Notes under the pieces: generated by a model
The model's input: the letters and a program-made list of their open reading frames with translations, nothing else
What the model was told of the DNA's origin: nothing
Database searches by the model: none
Source of the DNA: Neodothiora populina
Taxonomy: Eukaryota
Direction of reading: 5' to 3'
Assembly (NCBI RefSeq): GCF_041146345.1
Contig: NW_027191419.1
Location: 496,001-560,000 of the forward strand
DNA: 64,000 nt
Shown: positions 10,501 through 18,363 of the stretch, in pieces
Position numbering within the stretch: the stretch's first letter is position 1
How the letters are laid out: each line of letters opens with the position of its first letter
Made by a program: the position numbers and the translations under genes

Positions 10501-13482
10501 CGTTGTCAAAGAAGGTACAGCCGAGGAAGTACTAATTGAAGTCGTCGAGACAGGGATAGTTGAATTCGTCGTGATCGTGACAACAATCGTTGTCATCAGA
10601 GACGACGAAGTCAAGTTCGCAGACGGAGATGTAACCACGGATATTGTGGAGGTTGGCAACGATACTGTCGAAATTGGCAACGACAACGTGATCGATAGTG
10701 TGGAAGTGGAAGAAGAGGATTCGGAGGATGACAGTGACGTGGAAGTCATAGAAGTCGTTACATTCAGGGACAAGGACGTCGGAATCAGACTTGAAGAAGT
10801 AGCGCCTGTGGTATTCAAAGACAACGAAGTCGGAATGATAGTAGATGTGAGACTCGTGGCATTCGACGTTGTCATTGTACTGTTGATAACAGGAGACGAA
10901 GAGGACGAAGTCAAAGAAGTCGTGTTCGAACTCGAATATATCGACGTCGAAGTAACATTCTGAGACACCGTAGAAGTCGTGATCACAGTTGTAGTGTTCG
11001 CAACAACAGAAGTAGGCATTGAGCCTGATGTACCTGTCATGGACGAGTTCGAGCGAGTCGTGGTCATGCTAGTTGTATTCAGCACGCTGGTAGTATTAGC
11101 GAGAGCTGTAGTAAAAGTTGCACTAGTCGTATTCGAGGCGCTCGTAATGTTCACAGCAGTCGTTGAATTAGCTGGGACAGTGGTGATTGTCGAAAGGCTA
11201 GCAGATGTTGTTGTCGTCGTCGAAGTGTTTCCATAGTACACAGCGTAGACTGTGGTGCTGCCAGCAGACTGCATTGTGCCGGGTATGTTGTGCAAGTAAC
11301 AAAACCCTGTCACCATGTCTGCGTTGTCTGCAGCGTAGCTGAAAGTGACGCATGTGCTATCAGCGTCACAAGCTACCATGCAGCCATTGATGCCGTTCGA
11401 GGTTGTCTTGATAGATGTCGCAGGAGCATTGGTATCGGAGCTGCAGTATACACGATATGCTCTCATGTTGGTATCTGTGAATGTAGTGTGGTCCATCCCG
11501 GGACAAGTAGAGCCGGTTGCCGCCGGAAACCCTGTGGCCAAAGACGAAGACGGAAGGCCGGTCGCAGGTGACGCTCTGATAGCGCCAACGTAGGAGTCGG
11601 TGCCAGACATGAACCTCATGGCTGAAGTCATATTAGACTTGATGTAGCAGTTGCCTGCACCCGCCCCAAATGAATTTGCCGCTCCGACGAACGTGAATCC
11701 ATTGCAACCGACTATACCGTCGCATACAGCAAAACATTGATTGAAACCGTTCGTGACTGAGCGACCGCTACCAGGGCCAGTCGTATCGTTGCCGCAGCCA
11801 ATGAGATACTGAGCGCCATAGCTGTCCACGATCGTGTTCTGATTGTTCGCAGGGCAAGAGTATGCGCTGGAGCTCGCAGTGGTTCCAGATGTAGTTGCAG
11901 GTGTAGTAGCAGTTGTGATAGTGGAAGATGTGTTGACGAAGATGCCGGTAGCCGATGTCGATATGGAAGAGGTCGTAGAACTTGTGCCCATGCCAGAGCT
12001 GACGGCGACTCCAGCTATACTACAAACAGCACTCAAGGTTGCGTAATCAACATTCGGTCCGTTTGGATTCGTGAATCTGTAGAAGTGATTCAGGAACGCG
12101 GTCGCAGAGTCAATTGGAGCTCCGCTATTGGCACCATCACGAGCCCTGACATTTGCCCAAGCGTGGATCCAAGCTGCTAGTCTGTAGTGCGTCACGATGC
12201 CCTGAATGCCGTTTGCAGCTCCAAATTCATACTTTGTTGCTCGTCCGTTCACCAACGTCGTCGTTACGTTGCTTGACGACTGACCGTCGCGTAGAGACCT
12301 AAAGTGACGTCAGTTATAGCATGTGAAGAGTGGCACATACGTATCAACGAACCAGTCAGTAACGGCATGGGGAAGGGCAGGAAGACAATATCCACGACGA
12401 CCGCCACCAAAATATGGGATCGTATCATCAGCGTCACCATGGATCTCCATCCATGGGACATTGAGCCTTCCAGGGTTGCAAACCGGCTGTATGATCGTGT
12501 TGGTGAGCTCAGTATAGGGAACATTATTTATACAAGTCGTGTCGGTGGTGTTCGCATACATGGCTCCTGAGGAGATGCCGAATGCTGCGAATCTCGTCGA
12601 CATGTTTGGATCACAAGCGAGAACGTTGGTGAAGCCACCACCATTGGAATGTCCCGAAGCGAATATCCTACCGGTATCAATGCAATAGGAGGCAGAGAGA
12701 CTGGTAATGAGTGCGTCCACAAAGCCAATATCATCGACCGGATACTTTGCGAAGTCTGGATCCGCAGCCCAGGTGCCCTGAGGGAAAATCAGTCAAGTAT
12801 GGCAAGTCGATCCGGAGAGGTAGCTTACGTTAACTCCATTGGGGTACACAGAGATACCATATGGATTGAACTTCGGAAGAGAATATCCGGACTCTGATTC
12901 CATGGCAGTACCAGTTTCTCCCTTGCCATGGAAAGTGATCAGGAGTGGAGCGGCCTTGTTCGGATCATAAGTTACAGGTATGTTGATCCTGTAATTGCGA
13001 ACCCTGCCATCCGGTGCCGTGAAGGTCATAGACGTAGTAGCACCTCCCGCAGACATACCAGCAGTTAAAGGAGATCCACAGCCTTTGCTCGCCAAGGCAT
13101 AATTCGCAACGGGAGGGGGATATGGAGGCGTGCCAGCGTATGAACACAGGACAGCGCTCTGTACGCCTGACTTTGAGAAGACTCCAGAGTAACCATTCTT
13201 CAAGTAGCAATTTCCAGCACTGTAAGAAACATGCACACAACTAGCGGTAGTATCGCACAAGGCCATACATGCTGCGAAGCCGGTGACCGATATCGTCGAG
13301 AAAGCCCCGGTATTACCGTCCGAGCCGCAAAACACGATGTAACTCGCATTGTTACTAGATATATAAGGACTATTGTACAGCCCTGGACAGGGAGCACCAG
13401 AAGTCGACTGCGATCGAGAGAAATGAGGCAAAGTAAAGAGTGTGAGGGCCACAACCCATAGGGACTGCAACGACCGTACCAT
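7594..13482 (-). CDS. Giant secreted protein (~1874 aa): signal peptide, CE1-like (feruloyl esterase/PHB depolymerase-type) alpha/beta hydrolase, five Cys-rich PAN/apple-like modules, long Ser/Thr-rich linkers; exons 13482-12829, 12777-12353, 12298-10135, 10073-9883, 9835-7776, 7724-7594
   Basis: Five ORF-track fragments plus a short last exon join through GT-AG introns into 5625 nt (1875 codons). Hydrophobic N-terminus MVRSLQSLWVVALTLFTL. Motifs PLLITFHG, GHSNGGG nucleophile, EIHGDADDTI and WIHAW. Confidence 0.88.
7898..8014 (+). repeat. Compound microsatellite (GAA)31(GAT)8 encoding poly-Ser on the minus strand
   Basis: Pure GAA run 7898-7990, then GAT run 7991-8014, inside exon 5 of the esterase gene. 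Confidence 0.97.
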
Positions 13483-14300
13483 GTTCGCGATTGACTCTGG
13501 TAGGACAGCGAATGGATATCTCAAAGACCTTGAGGTTTAGGAAAGATGGTGAACAGACATGTGAGAAGGAGACCATGGGAGAAAAACAATCGAGGGCCAG
13601 AGGAATGTAAGAGACCTACATACATAACAACGGAGGTCTAGCCTCGTATACGGACAGCCATGCATTCCATGGAGCATATGCAAATCAAATGTGAATTTGA
13701 GAAATGTAGGAAACGAATCACTATGACCTGACCTACCTTCGCCACTGGGCACGAGGTGAACCCCCCATGATGACACAGACAGTGGATTACTTTGAAAGGA
13801 GAAATATCGATATCGATGTTGGCATGCATAGAAGACTTACTTGGTTCTTGTACTTCTCCGGCACATGTGGTAATCACAAGGGTCAATCGAGTTGAGGGTC
13901 TGCTGGAAGGAGAGGCTGGAAGGAACGACGGTCGAAGCGACCAAAAGCCCTTGCTTCAAACGCACTCTTGGCGTCCAGAACATCAGTTTCTCTACTTCTG
14001 CAACGATGCCAGAAGCGTCACATCGGGGCGAGAACATGCATACATGGCTAGGGGTACAATAGCTTGTCATGTTAAAATCAGCAATGTGTCTCATTTTACT
14101 AACTAGCTATGAACCATTTTTGGAAGATGAAGTCTCTGACAAGAGACGTCAGATCATAATAGAAACGTAGATGTGCAGTGTTCGTTCGTGATGTACATCG
14201 TGACTAGGTAACAGGTCATGAAAGGGGTCTTGTTCTGCCTGTGTTTGTTAGAAAGGGTATGATAACGGCGGGCGCCATGCATGTCGACGACTTACATTAT

Positions 14301-16183
14301 CTAAAGTCTACTGCCATGAACAATCTTGTAGTCGACAGCAAGCTCGCGGCCATCGTCATCAATGACAAGGACTCGCACGCTTCCACGACCGTTGTCGAAA
14401 GACTCGGTGAGACGGGCAAGAAGGTTGGACTGGTCCAAGACTGGCAGGCCTTGCTTGACATCACCGGTCTCGGTCATAGCGACAACCTGGCCATCGTCAC
14501 GGATATCCAAGACACGGTACTGCTTGAAGACAGGTCCAAGCATGTTCTGGACGACAACAGAGGGAGAGGGGTTGGAGATGAAGCTCGACTCCTCATTGAG
14601 CTGCTTGGTGAACAGGTCGACACCAAGGTAACGGTGCTGACCAGTCTGAGCGGACGTGGTGATACGAATAACCTGGCAAGGACGACCTTGCAAGATCAAC
14701 AAGTCACCGATGCGGATGTGGTGGCAAGGGATGGTGATGGTGTTCTGGGAGGAACCGCCATAGCGGGCGGCGGGAGCAAAGGGACGAGAGCCAGACATGG
14801 TGATCTCGTGCTCTTCAAGGGGAACGTCTTCTAGGTTTTGGGGGTGTTGGGGTTGGTGGGGTTGGTGGAGGTGGTGGTGATGGTGGTGGTGATCGGCTCC
14901 GTGGATGGGGTGGAGGATGCGATCAGCAGCGCGGTGGAGGCCGTGGCGGATGGAGTGGTGGTGACCTTCGTCGTCGTAGTATCCCATGAAACCTCTGCGT
15001 TTCCTTGGGGGATCGACGCTGGTGCGGGTGTCGATCTGGGCTCGGAACGAGTTACGGGCCGCAGGCGATGATGTTGCTGGTGCCGAGGGCAAAGCAGTCA
15101 CAGGTGCTGATGCTGATGCTGGGGCAGCGTAGGACTTCTCGGTGCGAGCTGCAAAGGACTCCGGGTAAGGAGGCTGGCGTTGTTGACGGGAAGTTGGGTA
15201 GTCGTCGGCAAAAGGACTGGTACGTTGACGATAACCTCGTTCGGCTGCGTCAATGTTGCTTTCCAAGTGTGTGGCAGGGCGGTGAGAGGTAGGATATTCA
15301 CGGTCCCAAGTCTTGTCCTGGACGTTGATCTGTGCGTTGTCGTAGCGTTGGTATGGCTGACGGTAGCTGATAGGTTAAATAGTATTAGCAAGGATGTGCT
15401 TGGGTGTCAATGATATTGATGCTTTGACAGTGACGATGATGGAAGGTCCGGGTTGATGGTTGATGATCGAGGCAGGAGCAGTAGCAGTAGCATCCGCACG
15501 AGCGTCAGCACCAGCAGCACCAGCAATCAAGTCAGACGTATGATGTTGACGTGGCAACACACTAGTGAGTGGAGTGATGAAGCCATCTGCACGGCCAAGG
15601 CGGGAGTAGCATCCCGAGGATAGATTGATTGAGGGGGCTGGTTGGGGGGCAATGATGTGCAGACAGAAAACAGCAACTGATCTGATTGCGTGAGACTCAC
15701 CTCTGGCTCTGGTTGTCGCGGGGTGGCTGGGTGAAGCGGTCTTCCTCGTGGATAGAGACTCTCTCTTCGCGCCGACCGGAACGGCGAGGGGCTGATTCCT
15801 CGTAGACGCTGACCTCCTCCTCGAAGCGGTGGTCTTGACGGGGGTCAGGAAGCTGAGAAGAGGGTGAACGAGTTTCGTGACCTTCCCGTCCGACGCGCGA
15901 AGTGGAAAGGTTGACCTGCTCGTCTACCTTGAGCTCTGTAGACTGGTTGACAGTATCACTCCTATACGAGGACGGGAAGACTGTGATGGATCAGCTCTGC
16001 TTCTTGAGTGTTGCTGTTTGCATGTATCCCCTCATCGGACTTACCACTGAAGGGGATGGGGACCTGTTGCTCATCTGTCAGCGCTGATGCTCTATACGAA
16101 GGAGGCATGATGATGCATCCAGGGGACGAAGGCGATCCGAGGACGATAGTTACTAGGGCACTTACTCTTGCGTCAAAATCCAG
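14301..16183 (-). CDS. HEX1: Woronin body major protein HEX1; core from ATG 14987 (MGYYDDEG), with upstream in-frame exons 16183-16166, 16063-16045, 15980-15701, 15366-14301 (long isoform, no AUG start)
   Basis: MGYYDD start, eIF5A-like core TITIPCHHIRIGDLLILQGRPCQVIRI and C-terminal PTS1 SRL. Upstream exons encode LDFDAR/VPIPFSV/FPSSYRSD and have canonical GTAAGT/GTGAGT..CAG introns that keep the frame. Confidence 0.93.
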
Positions 16184-18363
16184 ATTTACCGGATTGAGGG
16201 CGTTCCTTCTTGAAGACCTCTCGAATCGTTACTAGAACAACTCGAAAGGACAACAAGAACGAACTGAAGTCCTTGTTGGGGGTGGGATATAAAGGTTGTT
16301 GTTGATGTGTGTAATGGGAAAAGAGCGCCGATTGAAGCGGAGTGACGAGTGTGATGATGATGGGGTCTTTGCAGAGTACTAATGTGCGGTGAAGACTGCG
16401 ATTGGAGGCGGCGAGGTAGAGCTGTTCTTTCATAAAGCTATGATAACGATGGGTACTGATGATCTGCAGAACAACAGTTCGAATCAACAGCCCGGGTATC
16501 CTAGCGGCTAACGCTTTTAGCGGCGAACGGGTTTGTTAATTTATCAAGCTGTGGAGCTTTGACTGTGACCAGTGGTTGCGGTGCCTTGGGATGAACCCTT
16601 TTCCTGCCACACTCCCCGCCCTCTTTAGGTCCTCGGATGTGATGGACCTGTCTCGAGTCACAGATACAAAGAGTGAAGTAGTCTTACACTAGAATTAAGC
16701 CTCATGCTATTCCCAAGGTTGGTCGCTGGTTGATCCAGGAACGAGGTTTGCGATTCTGCCTTGCGAGCAGAGGACCTGAAATGCACGTGCAGCCGAGATC
16801 CTCGTCTGATAGTCGGATTCACCGCTACAAGTAAGAGACGTCCATTCGCACGTCGATTCTTGATATTGCGATTGCGCAAGTACAGCATTTGCCATTATAG
16901 ACTCCTTGCAGCGGCTTCGAAGCGTTCGATCGAAGCGATCGAAGGCTGCCCGAATGTCAGCTTACCTTACCTGGCTGGGGAAAGTAGTAATCGGATTGTA
17001 CTTTGGGCTCCGACCACTTGCAGACCTCGGACGTGATACAGTAGTTACGGCTTGCATGAACCCACCCCTAATCCTTCTGCTCGTTTTCACTTTACGAGTA
17101 ATTTGAGACTGCATGTGTCGATCTTGCACTACTGTGCTCGTACGGAAAAGCGGACCACCATTTCCCCAACCTTGCTTTGATACCTGAATGGCTGGCTGGC
17201 TGGCTGGGCGTGGCTGGGGCGGGGGGATGGGGGGGGGGGAATAAGAAGCAAGCCACGCGTTTGGGAGAAATCAGGATCAAGCGATTGGTTTAGTGTTGCA
17301 TTCGCAGATTGGACAACAAAGCTGGTCGTAAACAAATAGCGCACACATGTACACAAACCCAATAACAACACAGTTGACAGACAGTATGCCAGAAACCATC
17401 AATTGAGATAGCTGTTATTCAAGAAGAAAACGCATAACGTTCGACGTTCGTCTTTCTGTACCATGGAATTTAAGCTTAGTTGTAGTCACCGTTTGAGCAA
17501 CCGTCGTCGCATGATTCACGATAAGCGAGCCTCGATCGATTATGTGAAGAAGTTCGAGTCCGTAGACCATCCTGTTCGTTGAACACTGCACGAGTGTCTG
17601 ATATCGTAGTAGTCCATGATTTGAATCCAGTATATATCCAGATGAGGAGTTGTGCTGTGCCATATCCTAAATCTGCATCGTCATACAGCAGGTGAGATAC
17701 TGTAAGGTATGCAAAACAATCTCACGTGCGTAACCCTGGTTCTCACAGCATCATAACAAAACGCAACTTTCCAACATGGCAAATCAGTCGTCGATTCCAC
17801 CACCTTCATATGTTTATAACAAGACCTTGAAATTTGGGCTGCGCTCACAAGTCTAACAAATTTTGTTGCAAACAAGGCGACTTTTCTTGATTGGTGGATC
17901 ATGTCCAAGTTCCTCGAGGTAGTAGGGTGACCCTGGTCTCATATCGTAACGACACCGCATGTCTGACACCTTACCAATCGTTGGTATAAGGAGCTTCGGT
18001 GTAGTAGTACTCAGGTTTGTACAATATCTGAGCGTTTTTACATGCTTGGTCTGCTTGATGGTGTGAGAAAGATAAGATACATTAGCTTTGTTCGTGTCAC
18101 AGTTGAGGTGGAAGGGACTGCTGCTGCTAGCCTCAACAGTCGTTATTTGTGATTGCGACACGATTGCAAATCGTATTGCTGGCAGATATAGTGAAGATGA
18201 CAATGCACGACAAACATTACATGAAACTGGATGTGTAGAGAGCTATCGATTCTGGAATATTCTGCACAGCAAAAGACACGTTCGTAATGCAAGTAAAGAA
18301 TCGAATAATGACTACATATCCACAAGTCTAGTATGCCTCCTTCAGGCTGAGAATACCACTCCT

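Follow-up and report, generated by a model that had tools for sequence, protein, structure and literature searches.

A conserved CUG codon as the likely start of a long HEX1 isoform made beside the classical MGYYDD form in Neodothiora populina and related fungi

HEX1 is the main protein of the Woronin body, which seals wounded fungal hyphae. The hex1 gene considered here lies on the minus strand, at about 16430–14301, of a 64,000-nucleotide (nt) stretch of the Neodothiora populina genome (contig NW_027191419.1, positions 496,001 to 560,000; hereafter the window, whose own numbering is used throughout). This locus raises the question of where the translation of HEX1 begins. HEX1 is among the best-studied fungal organelle proteins, yet database models of 400–550 amino acids (aa) have been either used uncritically or dismissed as errors. 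Long N-terminal extensions in the databases have been treated as probable annotation errors, and a revised hex1 model starts at MGYYDD (PMC7762394; this and all other papers are cited for the portions available to us). A survey of 460 Hex1 proteins, mostly 405–534 aa long, stated that “misannotation could not be precluded,” and a 392-aa Metarhizium Hex1 has also been reported. The comparison of the window with related loci described below makes it likely that the hex1 mRNA gives rise to a long form started at a CUG codon and, by leaky scanning, to the MGYYDD form, with a third start being probable in this clade.

The identity of the gene product was determined from its C-terminal part. The last hex1 exon encodes an eIF5A-like two-domain core that matched the Pfam families PF21485 (29.1 bits; cut-off, 27.1) and PF01287 (28.7 bits; cut-off, 24.2), and the core aligned to solved Woronin body major proteins, including 1khi, with E values of 1e-76 to 1.4e-84. 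Classical HEX1 proteins have been defined by an N-terminal MGYYDD hexapeptide and a C-terminal tripeptide that serves as a peroxisomal targeting signal type 1 (PTS1) (PMC7762394). In the window, MGYYDD starts at ATG 14987 and the C-terminal PTS1 is SRL; the solved HEX1 chains that were found all begin at MGYYDD. By these sequence criteria, the window protein is HEX1, and lattice assembly and septal-pore sealing are predicted for it from the family.

Above the MGYYDD codon, the frame stays open once three GT-AG introns are removed. A total of 232 open codons run in frame into MGYYDD, and the frame is continuous from directly after TAG-TAA (16234–16229) to the stop codon at 14303–14301 (Table 1). 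An earlier reading made from the letters of the window (hereafter the original prediction) had joined about 230 open codons to MGYYDD through three canonical introns, in a frame shut by TAG-TAA with no AUG before MGYYDD, and the sequence check reproduced each of these points. Introns 1 and 2 were also confirmed independently: only the spliced product brings LDFDAR, VPIPFS, and VFPSSYRSD together into a motif that is contiguous and near-invariant in homologues. This contiguous sequence, NLDFDARVPIPFSVFPSSYRSD, is almost invariant in proteins of Dothideomycetes, Eurotiomycetes, Leotiomycetes, Lecanoromycetes, Xylona, and Geoglossomycetes, the classes being those to which we presume the homologue genera to belong. 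The nested products were computed as 460 aa (52.2 kDa), 228 aa (25.6 kDa), and 165 aa (18.1 kDa), and SRL ends all three; these sizes agree with the approximately 460, 228, and 165 aa with SRL ends given by the original prediction. The public gene model (P0003; 469 aa) begins with MPPSYRASALTDEQQ at ATG 16108, within intron 1. This start is possible because the 102 nt of intron 1 are divisible by three and contain no in-frame stop codon. A look for RNA runs of this species turned up none; a single 191-nt contig from one sequencing run (16122–16312) was colinear with the genome, probably derives from DNA, and is uninformative on splicing or expression.

The original prediction placed the start of the long form at an in-frame CTG (16183–16181) in an optimal context, and both A at −3 and G at +4 were found there. 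Related loci were collected from a metagenome and metatranscriptome collection with the degenerate pattern DF[DE]ARVPIPFS[VI]FPS, and the codon preceding the motif was left out of the pattern. At least 116 loci were obtained; many of them were contigs of approximately 2 kb with an unbroken open reading frame (ORF) from the motif to SRL, i.e., spliced transcripts, and others were long genomic contigs. They formed 69, 53, and 28 clusters at 97, 90, and 80% identity, respectively, and probabilities computed from these counts overstate independence as the loci share ancestry. By best hit, the 53 clusters were 26 Dothideomycete-like, 13 Leotiomycete-like, six Lecanoromycete-like, five Eurotiomycete-like, two Geoglossomycete-like, and one Candelaria-like, the class labels being approximate assignments that we presume to hold.

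The codon before the motif was CTG in 115 of the 115 listed loci with readable context, and A occupied position −3 in all 115, whereas CTG made up only 71 of the 613 other Leu codons (11.6%) in the same ORFs. G at +4 is fixed by the following Asp codon. Synonymous variation is seen among related loci in the neighbouring Ala, Arg, Val, and Pro codons, and codons −1 to −4 before the CTG show no amino-acid conservation. Given the invariant CTG and the unconserved codons that precede it, conservation therefore begins exactly at the CTG. An in-frame ATG between the upstream stop codon (3–54 codons away) and the CTG was found in none of the 112 loci with a visible stop, and an ATG in any frame within the 100 nt above the CTG was found in none of 107 loci. 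The closest stop is only three or four codons above the CTG in some loci, as in TAG GTC GTC AAC CTG.

The extension between the CTG and MGYYDD was compared at the protein and nucleotide levels. Of 1638 candidates, 166 matched residues 1–245 of P0003, all of which lie upstream of MGYYDD, at E ≤ 0.01; the best 120 of these 166 were nearly all annotated as Woronin body or eIF5A-like proteins and were 275–642 aa long. Protein-level similarity between families reached an E value of 1e-46. Thirty full-length spliced transcripts, or 19 after dereplication at 90%, were available, and in all 30 the extension frame was open and joined to HEX1 (156–363 codons). The median ratio of nonsynonymous to synonymous substitution rates (dN/dS) was 0.40 in the extension and 0.20 in the rest of the protein (71 of 171 pairs, 0.1 < dS < 1.5), as calculated from protein-guided alignments, which can lower dN. 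When 28 pairs were aligned at the nucleotide level, the differences counted at the first, second, and third codon positions were 885, 612, and 1484, respectively, and insertions or deletions that were not multiples of three occurred only upstream of the CTG. These sequence comparisons indicate that the extension is coding and under purifying selection, and that it extends over at least five Pezizomycotina classes as well as an intronless, divergent lineage. Sordariomycetes were absent both from the best 120 of the 166 extension matches and from the species list, as available to us, of an earlier RNA study of this region (PMC5640933).

The extension matched no Pfam family. A search of the ESM Atlas gave no usable feature hit and only structure hits with template modeling (TM) scores of 0.23 or less, and a protein search with the last 126 extension residues alone, which is bounded by the word-index limit, matched only their own protein. 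In an AlphaFold2 model of the related long form L014 (45-row alignment), the predicted local distance difference test score of the extension was below 50 except for a weak helix at residues 173–185, which covers a conserved IDxTERxYRxRT patch. The extension is thus predicted by modeling to be disordered. No recognised targeting signal was found in it.

As a separate observation, six loci (L012, L021, L032, L055, L069, and L108; e.g., L069:2498–4339) represent the divergent intronless HEX1 lineage, with ORFs of 607–629 codons. The CTG and N-terminal motif are kept, the extension is rich in His and Gln, MVKYD replaces MGYYD, and AHKL replaces the C-terminal SRL. In this lineage, 1260 nt free of ATG separate the CTG from the ATG of MVKYD, and the hairpin common in other leaders (described below) is missing by eye.

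A further property of the region is the lack of ATG codons. The spliced sequence 16430–14988, whose upper boundary was chosen just below ATG 16433–16431, is 943 nt long and contains no ATG in any frame, and the three introns hold 3, 2, and 3 ATGs. The base composition predicts 9.4 ATGs for this length, zero being reached in 0 of 5000 shuffles, and 17.1 would be expected from the density across the window (18.2 per kb); the original prediction had reported the same absence over about 943 exonic nt, with several ATGs in the introns, against an expectation of about 15. In the window, ATGs resume 248 nt above the CTG. In the related transcripts, the stretch from the CTG to the MGY ATG (468–1089 nt) had no ATG in any frame in 30 of 30 cases, and the assembled leaders (52–334 nt) were ATG-free in 29 of 30. 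The exception, L071 (1–1270, oriented), has 13 ATGs, all at least 323 nt above the CTG, and could represent an extended transcript, a read-through, or a chimeric assembly. Over 31.8 kb with leaders included, one ATG was observed versus 129.8 expected from dinucleotide-preserving shuffles. In the same transcripts, the ATG density is 13.1 per kb for the core ORF and 25.5 per kb for the 3′ untranslated region (UTR). In genomic loci, the nearest upstream ATG is 191–730 nt above the CTG, and beyond it 8–18 ATGs occur per 500 nt.

The same depletion was seen in annotated proteins. Both motifs were held by 106 of the 120 listed homologues (the best 120 of 166), and the 14 without both, including P0003, were left out of the count. 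Only two Met residues were present in the 24,491 extension residues of these 106 homologues, compared with 1.26% Met downstream, and both were in P0118, which retains an intron. In P0118, a protein from an assembled contig, the apparent retained intron is read as an unrelated hydrophobic stretch and the core is missing; public assemblies thus contain hex1 RNAs that keep an intron. An AUG-free tract of this kind is what leaky scanning requires, so that ribosomes passing the CUG reach the MGYYDD AUG.

From this anatomy and its conservation, we infer the following course of initiation. The 40S subunits would scan an ATG-free leader that contains a conserved long hairpin. A minority of them would initiate with initiator methionyl-tRNA at CUG 16183–16181, in its strong context, and produce the 460-aa protein, composed of a disordered, Met-free arm of approximately 230 residues with the invariant N-terminal peptide (M)DFDARVPIPFSVFPSSYRSD, followed by the whole classical HEX1 and its PTS1. 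Most subunits would skip the CUG, cross approximately 700 nt untrapped because no AUG occurs in any frame, and start at the MGYYDD AUG, yielding the lattice-forming protein. In this clade, the sub-optimal base at −3 of the MGYYDD AUG would allow some subunits to leak to the in-frame AUG before the core and make a core-only form. Near-cognate starts are weaker than AUG, and the long form would for this reason be a minor product. A sub-stoichiometric long form would be well matched to capping a lattice that assembles itself or to serving as its adaptor, and it may have a role in Woronin body assembly, the tuning of which the original prediction had raised, or in tethering. Non-AUG initiation combined with leaky scanning was the central proposal of the original prediction, and it is supported by the invariant CTG, the ATG-free extensions, and the coding conservation in relatives. 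The prediction had also looked to relatives for conservation of the CTG and its context, AUG depletion, and a dN/dS below 1 in the extension, and these features were all found, with the values given above.

Evidence for the third start comes from the codons that follow MGYYDD. In the window, the MGYYDD ATG has T at −3 and is followed by 188 ATG-free bases up to the in-frame ATG 14798, which has A at −3; the original prediction had likewise called the context of ATG 14987 weak and seen no AUG before 14798. The next ATG after MGY was in frame, at +216 to +423 nt and 21–45 nt before IPCH, in 11 of the 19 dereplicated transcripts. These 11 had Dothideomycete-like or Candelaria-like best hits, and the −3 base of their MGY ATG was G in nine, T in one, and A in one. 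The other eight transcripts, which were Eurotiomycete-, Leotiomycete-, or Lecanoromycete-like, had an out-of-frame ATG at +13 to +115, and seven of the eight had A at −3. These correlations in sequence point to a probable core-only third start in the Dothideomycete-like and Candelaria-like group, with the window included. With respect to the three-tier cascade originally proposed, the CUG and MGYYDD tiers were thus borne out by the comparative data, and the tier at ATG 14798 was narrowed to this group, where its support is correlative.

The leader of hex1 contains a long hairpin upstream of the CTG (Table 1). The 131 nt around it fold at −43.9 kcal/mol with a z-score of −4.6. In an RNAalifold analysis of 44 sequences, comprising the window and 43 of the 48 dereplicated leaders of sufficient length, two nested 7-bp stems (14 pairs) were placed, with 98.5% of cells paired versus 39–68% when the pairing partner was slid; three pairs showed compensatory changes, and the covariation score was matched by 0 of 500 shuffles. 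Five leaders (L012, L037, L055, L087, and L095) looked unalignable and were left out, a choice that favours the structure. In these five of the 48 leaders, all of which keep the CTG, the hairpin was not recognisable by eye; it is common, not universal. The spacer between the hairpin and the CTG measures 20–34 nt and falls into the three classes modulo 3 in 12, 12, and 21 loci; the sequence above the CTG is therefore non-coding and conserved as nucleotides. As to its function, our guesses are that the hairpin determines what fraction of ribosomes halts at the CUG or that it binds a factor.

Other foldings were also noted. For TTCTTG, the 5′ arm of the outer stem, a second partner is available in a conserved CAAGAA-like element further up (16251–16277, minus strand; alignment columns about 64–87), and two mutually exclusive foldings are therefore possible. 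In the window, this alternative pairing joins CAACAAG (16277–16271) with CTTGTTG (16257–16251), and an apparent compensatory C-G/G-C change relative to other species is seen. The minimum-energy fold of the window also has a small hairpin at 16173–16197 (minus strand; ATCCGG/CTGGAT with a 5-nt loop), whose 3′ arm opens with the CUG. The idea of a consensus hairpin at or below the CTG was rejected: similar stems can be drawn in some relatives, but the RNAalifold consensus placed none.

A conserved RNA has previously been described at this position. [quoted passage not shown] The authors wrote that the tail “exhibits evidence that it codes for protein,” likened part of the 3′ side of the hairpin to a 3′ splice site, and suggested a control of splicing; no start codon or CUG start is named in the portions of that paper available to us (PMC5640933). 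The motif and the window hairpin share locus and description, and their identity rests on the authors' description. A search of Rfam 15 with positions 14000–17500, on both strands, gave no match at E ≤ 1. Where the authors proposed splicing regulation, our reading is that the tail may be the opening codons of the CUG-initiated ORF.

The same RNA forms the basis of an alternative in which the MGYYDD protein is the sole product and the upstream stretch is a long untranslated leader that lacks AUG and is conserved as RNA (the hexA motif with its tail). The region was indeed first described as a candidate structured non-coding RNA (PMC5640933), the leader hairpin is real, and the solved structures and functional studies that were found use the MGYYDD form. 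An untranslated leader would not, however, account for a frame that is open in every transcript, for the excess of third-position differences and the dN/dS of the extension, for protein similarity between families, or for the restriction of frame-breaking indels to the region above the CTG, and codon-like conservation in the tail had already been noted by Li and Breaker (PMC5640933). We consider this alternative to be very improbable.

An equally small chance is given to an AUG in another exon further up, joined by splicing to an acceptor that lies between the stop codon and the CTG, in which case the CTG would be a plain Leu codon. The resemblance of the 3′ side of the hairpin to a 3′ splice site (PMC5640933) and the AG dinucleotides present between the stop and the CTG would permit such a junction, and many annotated models carry Met-started N-termini of 1–116 residues before the motif. 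These N-termini have no sequence in common, however; 17 of the 106 counted models begin with a non-Met residue, and many listed homologues are flagged “partial.” Such arbitrary or partial N-termini would arise because the long form offers gene finders no ATG. In addition, 29 of the 30 transcripts run colinearly through their ATG-free leader into the CTG, amino-acid conservation starts exactly at this codon, and a plain Leu codon would not remain CTG in every listed locus when CTG is so rare among the other Leu codons.

Ribosomes could also begin the extension elsewhere, using a different near-cognate codon (e.g., an in-frame AGG above the CTG) or a codon below the CTG, using several codons together, or being directed there by the hairpin independently of the cap. 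In 52 of the 112 loci, the interval from the stop to the CTG holds one or more further efficient near-cognate codons in frame; the window has two in-frame AGG codons in this interval, and the conserved hairpin 20–34 nt upstream still calls for a role. The remaining 60 of the 112 loci have no other efficient near-cognate codon, the interval being only three or four codons in some; moreover, only the CTG and the A at −3 are invariant, and the upstream spacing is not conserved in frame. A different start is thus about as unlikely as the two preceding alternatives. The least credible option is that the public model is correct and that intron 1 is kept, or transcription begins inside it, with a start at ATG 16108–16106 (MPPSYRASALTDEQQ-VPIPFS...), as the P0003 annotation and the stop-free length of intron 1 would allow, since this start loses the near-invariant LDFDAR of several classes for 15 residues found in no homologue, disregards consensus intron ends (GTAAGT and CAG) and a region that is ATG-free in 30 of 30 related transcripts, leaves the invariant CTG just upstream unexplained, and is preceded by an out-of-frame ATG at 16118, whose short ORF stops at a TAG a few codons past 16108, so that 16108 is not the first AUG even on an intron-retaining RNA. 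The public start at ATG 16108 is therefore probably an artefact, and the model wrong.

Some points weigh against the proposed course of initiation. A stable hairpin in a leader is usually expected to impede scanning and not to aid it. From ATG 16433–16431, an ORF of 87 codons in a different frame runs past the CTG to TGA 16175–16173; were transcription to start above 16433, this upstream ORF would carry ribosomes past the CTG. The 5′ ends of the assembled transcripts may be incomplete, and an ATG further up is possible for each contig. Regarding conservation, the extension is under weaker constraint than the core, its dN/dS depends on the type of alignment mentioned above, and the loci are related by descent. 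The third start competes with alternative splicing of the intron after MGYYDD, which could also produce short forms, is visible in P0086 versus P0088, and is a known source of short and long HEX1 (Vangalis et al., 2020; PMC7762394). Finally, ribosome-profiling, peptide, or western data on a long hex1 form were not found in the searched literature.

The closest fungal parallel is cpc-1 of Neurospora crassa, which the original prediction had cited as an example of conserved near-cognate initiation in filamentous fungi, in agreement with the published account (PMC5487733). Both genes belong to Pezizomycotina and produce an mRNA with a long leader, a stop-free in-frame extension conserved as amino acids, and near-cognate codons that are deeply conserved and flanked by A (−3) and G (+4); extended isoforms beside the AUG form are described for cpc-1 (PMC5487733) and would be expected for hex1. 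In cpc-1, several near-cognate codons (ACG, AUU, and CUG) are kept in 74–98 of 100 species and act together with AUG upstream ORFs (PMC5487733), whereas hex1 has one invariant CTG in an AUG-free leader and extension and encodes a structural organelle protein instead of a transcription factor. The supplements of that study available to us had no entry for hex-1, NCU08332, or Woronin (PMC5487733).

Two other fungal cases can be compared. The HEX1 splice isoforms likewise come from one gene, differ on the N-terminal side, and keep the core and PTS1, but they all start at MGYYDD and differ by about 20–35 residues (PMC7762394), whereas the CUG form would add 156–363 upstream residues by translational choice. 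A fungal peroxisome-related protein reported in 2020 also gains an N-terminal extension from its annotated 5′ UTR via non-AUG initiation (PMC7214817). That extension supplies a cryptic peroxisomal targeting signal type 2 and alters the location of the protein (PMC7214817), whereas every hex1 isoform already ends in PTS1. A report of non-AUG initiation for hex1 was not found in the literature searched, which lay outside the subscription journals that hold the original HexA and AoHex1 papers, and the peptides of the extension motif appeared in no main text of the same literature. The mechanism is thus known in kind, and its application to hex1 appears to be new, a view supported by these searches. 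In mammalian FGF2 and MYC, an in-frame CUG in good context above the main AUG gives a minor longer isoform by leaky scanning. In contrast to these genes, the AUG-free tract of hex1 is far longer (up to 1260 nt, in L069) and has been kept across fungal classes.

If CUG initiation holds, the long form of HEX1 would be real and ancient, reaching across five or more classes plus the divergent intronless lineage, and hundreds of hex1 gene models could be corrected. The hexA motif RNA would be open to reinterpretation as the leader and first codons of the long isoform, and the AUG desert of 0.5 to 1.3 kb across classes would illustrate, with unusual clarity for a natural case, how leaky scanning is selected for. 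A bolder proposal, which we hold only tentatively and regard as rather doubtful, is that the long form is an ancient sub-stoichiometric Woronin subunit. Its core would sit in the lattice, its arm with the invariant tip would cap the crystal or link it to a membrane or septal tether, the hairpin would set the CUG:AUG ratio, and a core-only third form would be added in Dothideomycetes. If this were true, one mRNA would hard-wire the stoichiometry of an organelle building block and its adaptor.

Table 1. Features of the hex1 locus in the window.
Feature	Position	Strand	Basis or remark
Long leader hairpin	16202..16264	-	Outer stem TTCTTG/CAAGAA, inner stem CCTTTCGA/TCGAGAGG; TAG-TAA in the apical part
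Minimum ATG-free 5′ leader	16184..16430	-	Nearest upstream ATG at 16433-16431
TAG-TAA closing the HEX1 frame, 15 codons above the CTG	16229..16234	-	Sequence
CTG, proposed start of the long isoform	16181..16183	-	A at −3, G at +4; CTG in 115/115 related loci
Coding part of exon 1 (LDFDAR)	16166..16183	-	Homologue motif
Intron 1, 102 nt, GTAAGT..CAG, 3 ATGs including the public start 16108-16106	16064..16165	-	Splicing restores the invariant motif
Exon 2, 19-nt micro-exon (VPIPFS)	16045..16063	-	Homologue motif
Intron 2, 64 nt, GTAAGT..CAG, 2 ATGs	15981..16044	-	Sequence
Exon 3, mid extension (P0002), no Pfam family	15701..15980	-	Sequence
Intron 3, 334 nt, GTGAGT..CAG, 3 ATGs	15367..15700	-	Same junction in the public model P0003
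Exon 4, final 126 codons of the Met-free extension	14988..15366	-	Sequence
Classical MGYYDD ATG, start of the 228-aa form	14985..14987	-	T at −3, G at +4
First ATG (any frame) below MGYYDD, putative start of the 165-aa core-only form	14796..14798	-	In frame, A at −3
Rest of the 165-aa form, mostly core (IF5A-like_N and eIF-5a OB fold)	14304..14795	-	Pfam PF21485, PF01287
PTS1 tripeptide SRL	14312-14304	-	Followed by stop TAG 14303-14301

Two further features were noted on the minus strand around the gene. Downstream of hex1, the ORF list contains a Cys/Gly-rich ORF of 247 codons at 12793–13536. A C-rich low-complexity tract, in which runs of C are followed by CAGCC repeats, is located at about 17185–17235, approximately 1 kb above the CTG in the presumed promoter region.

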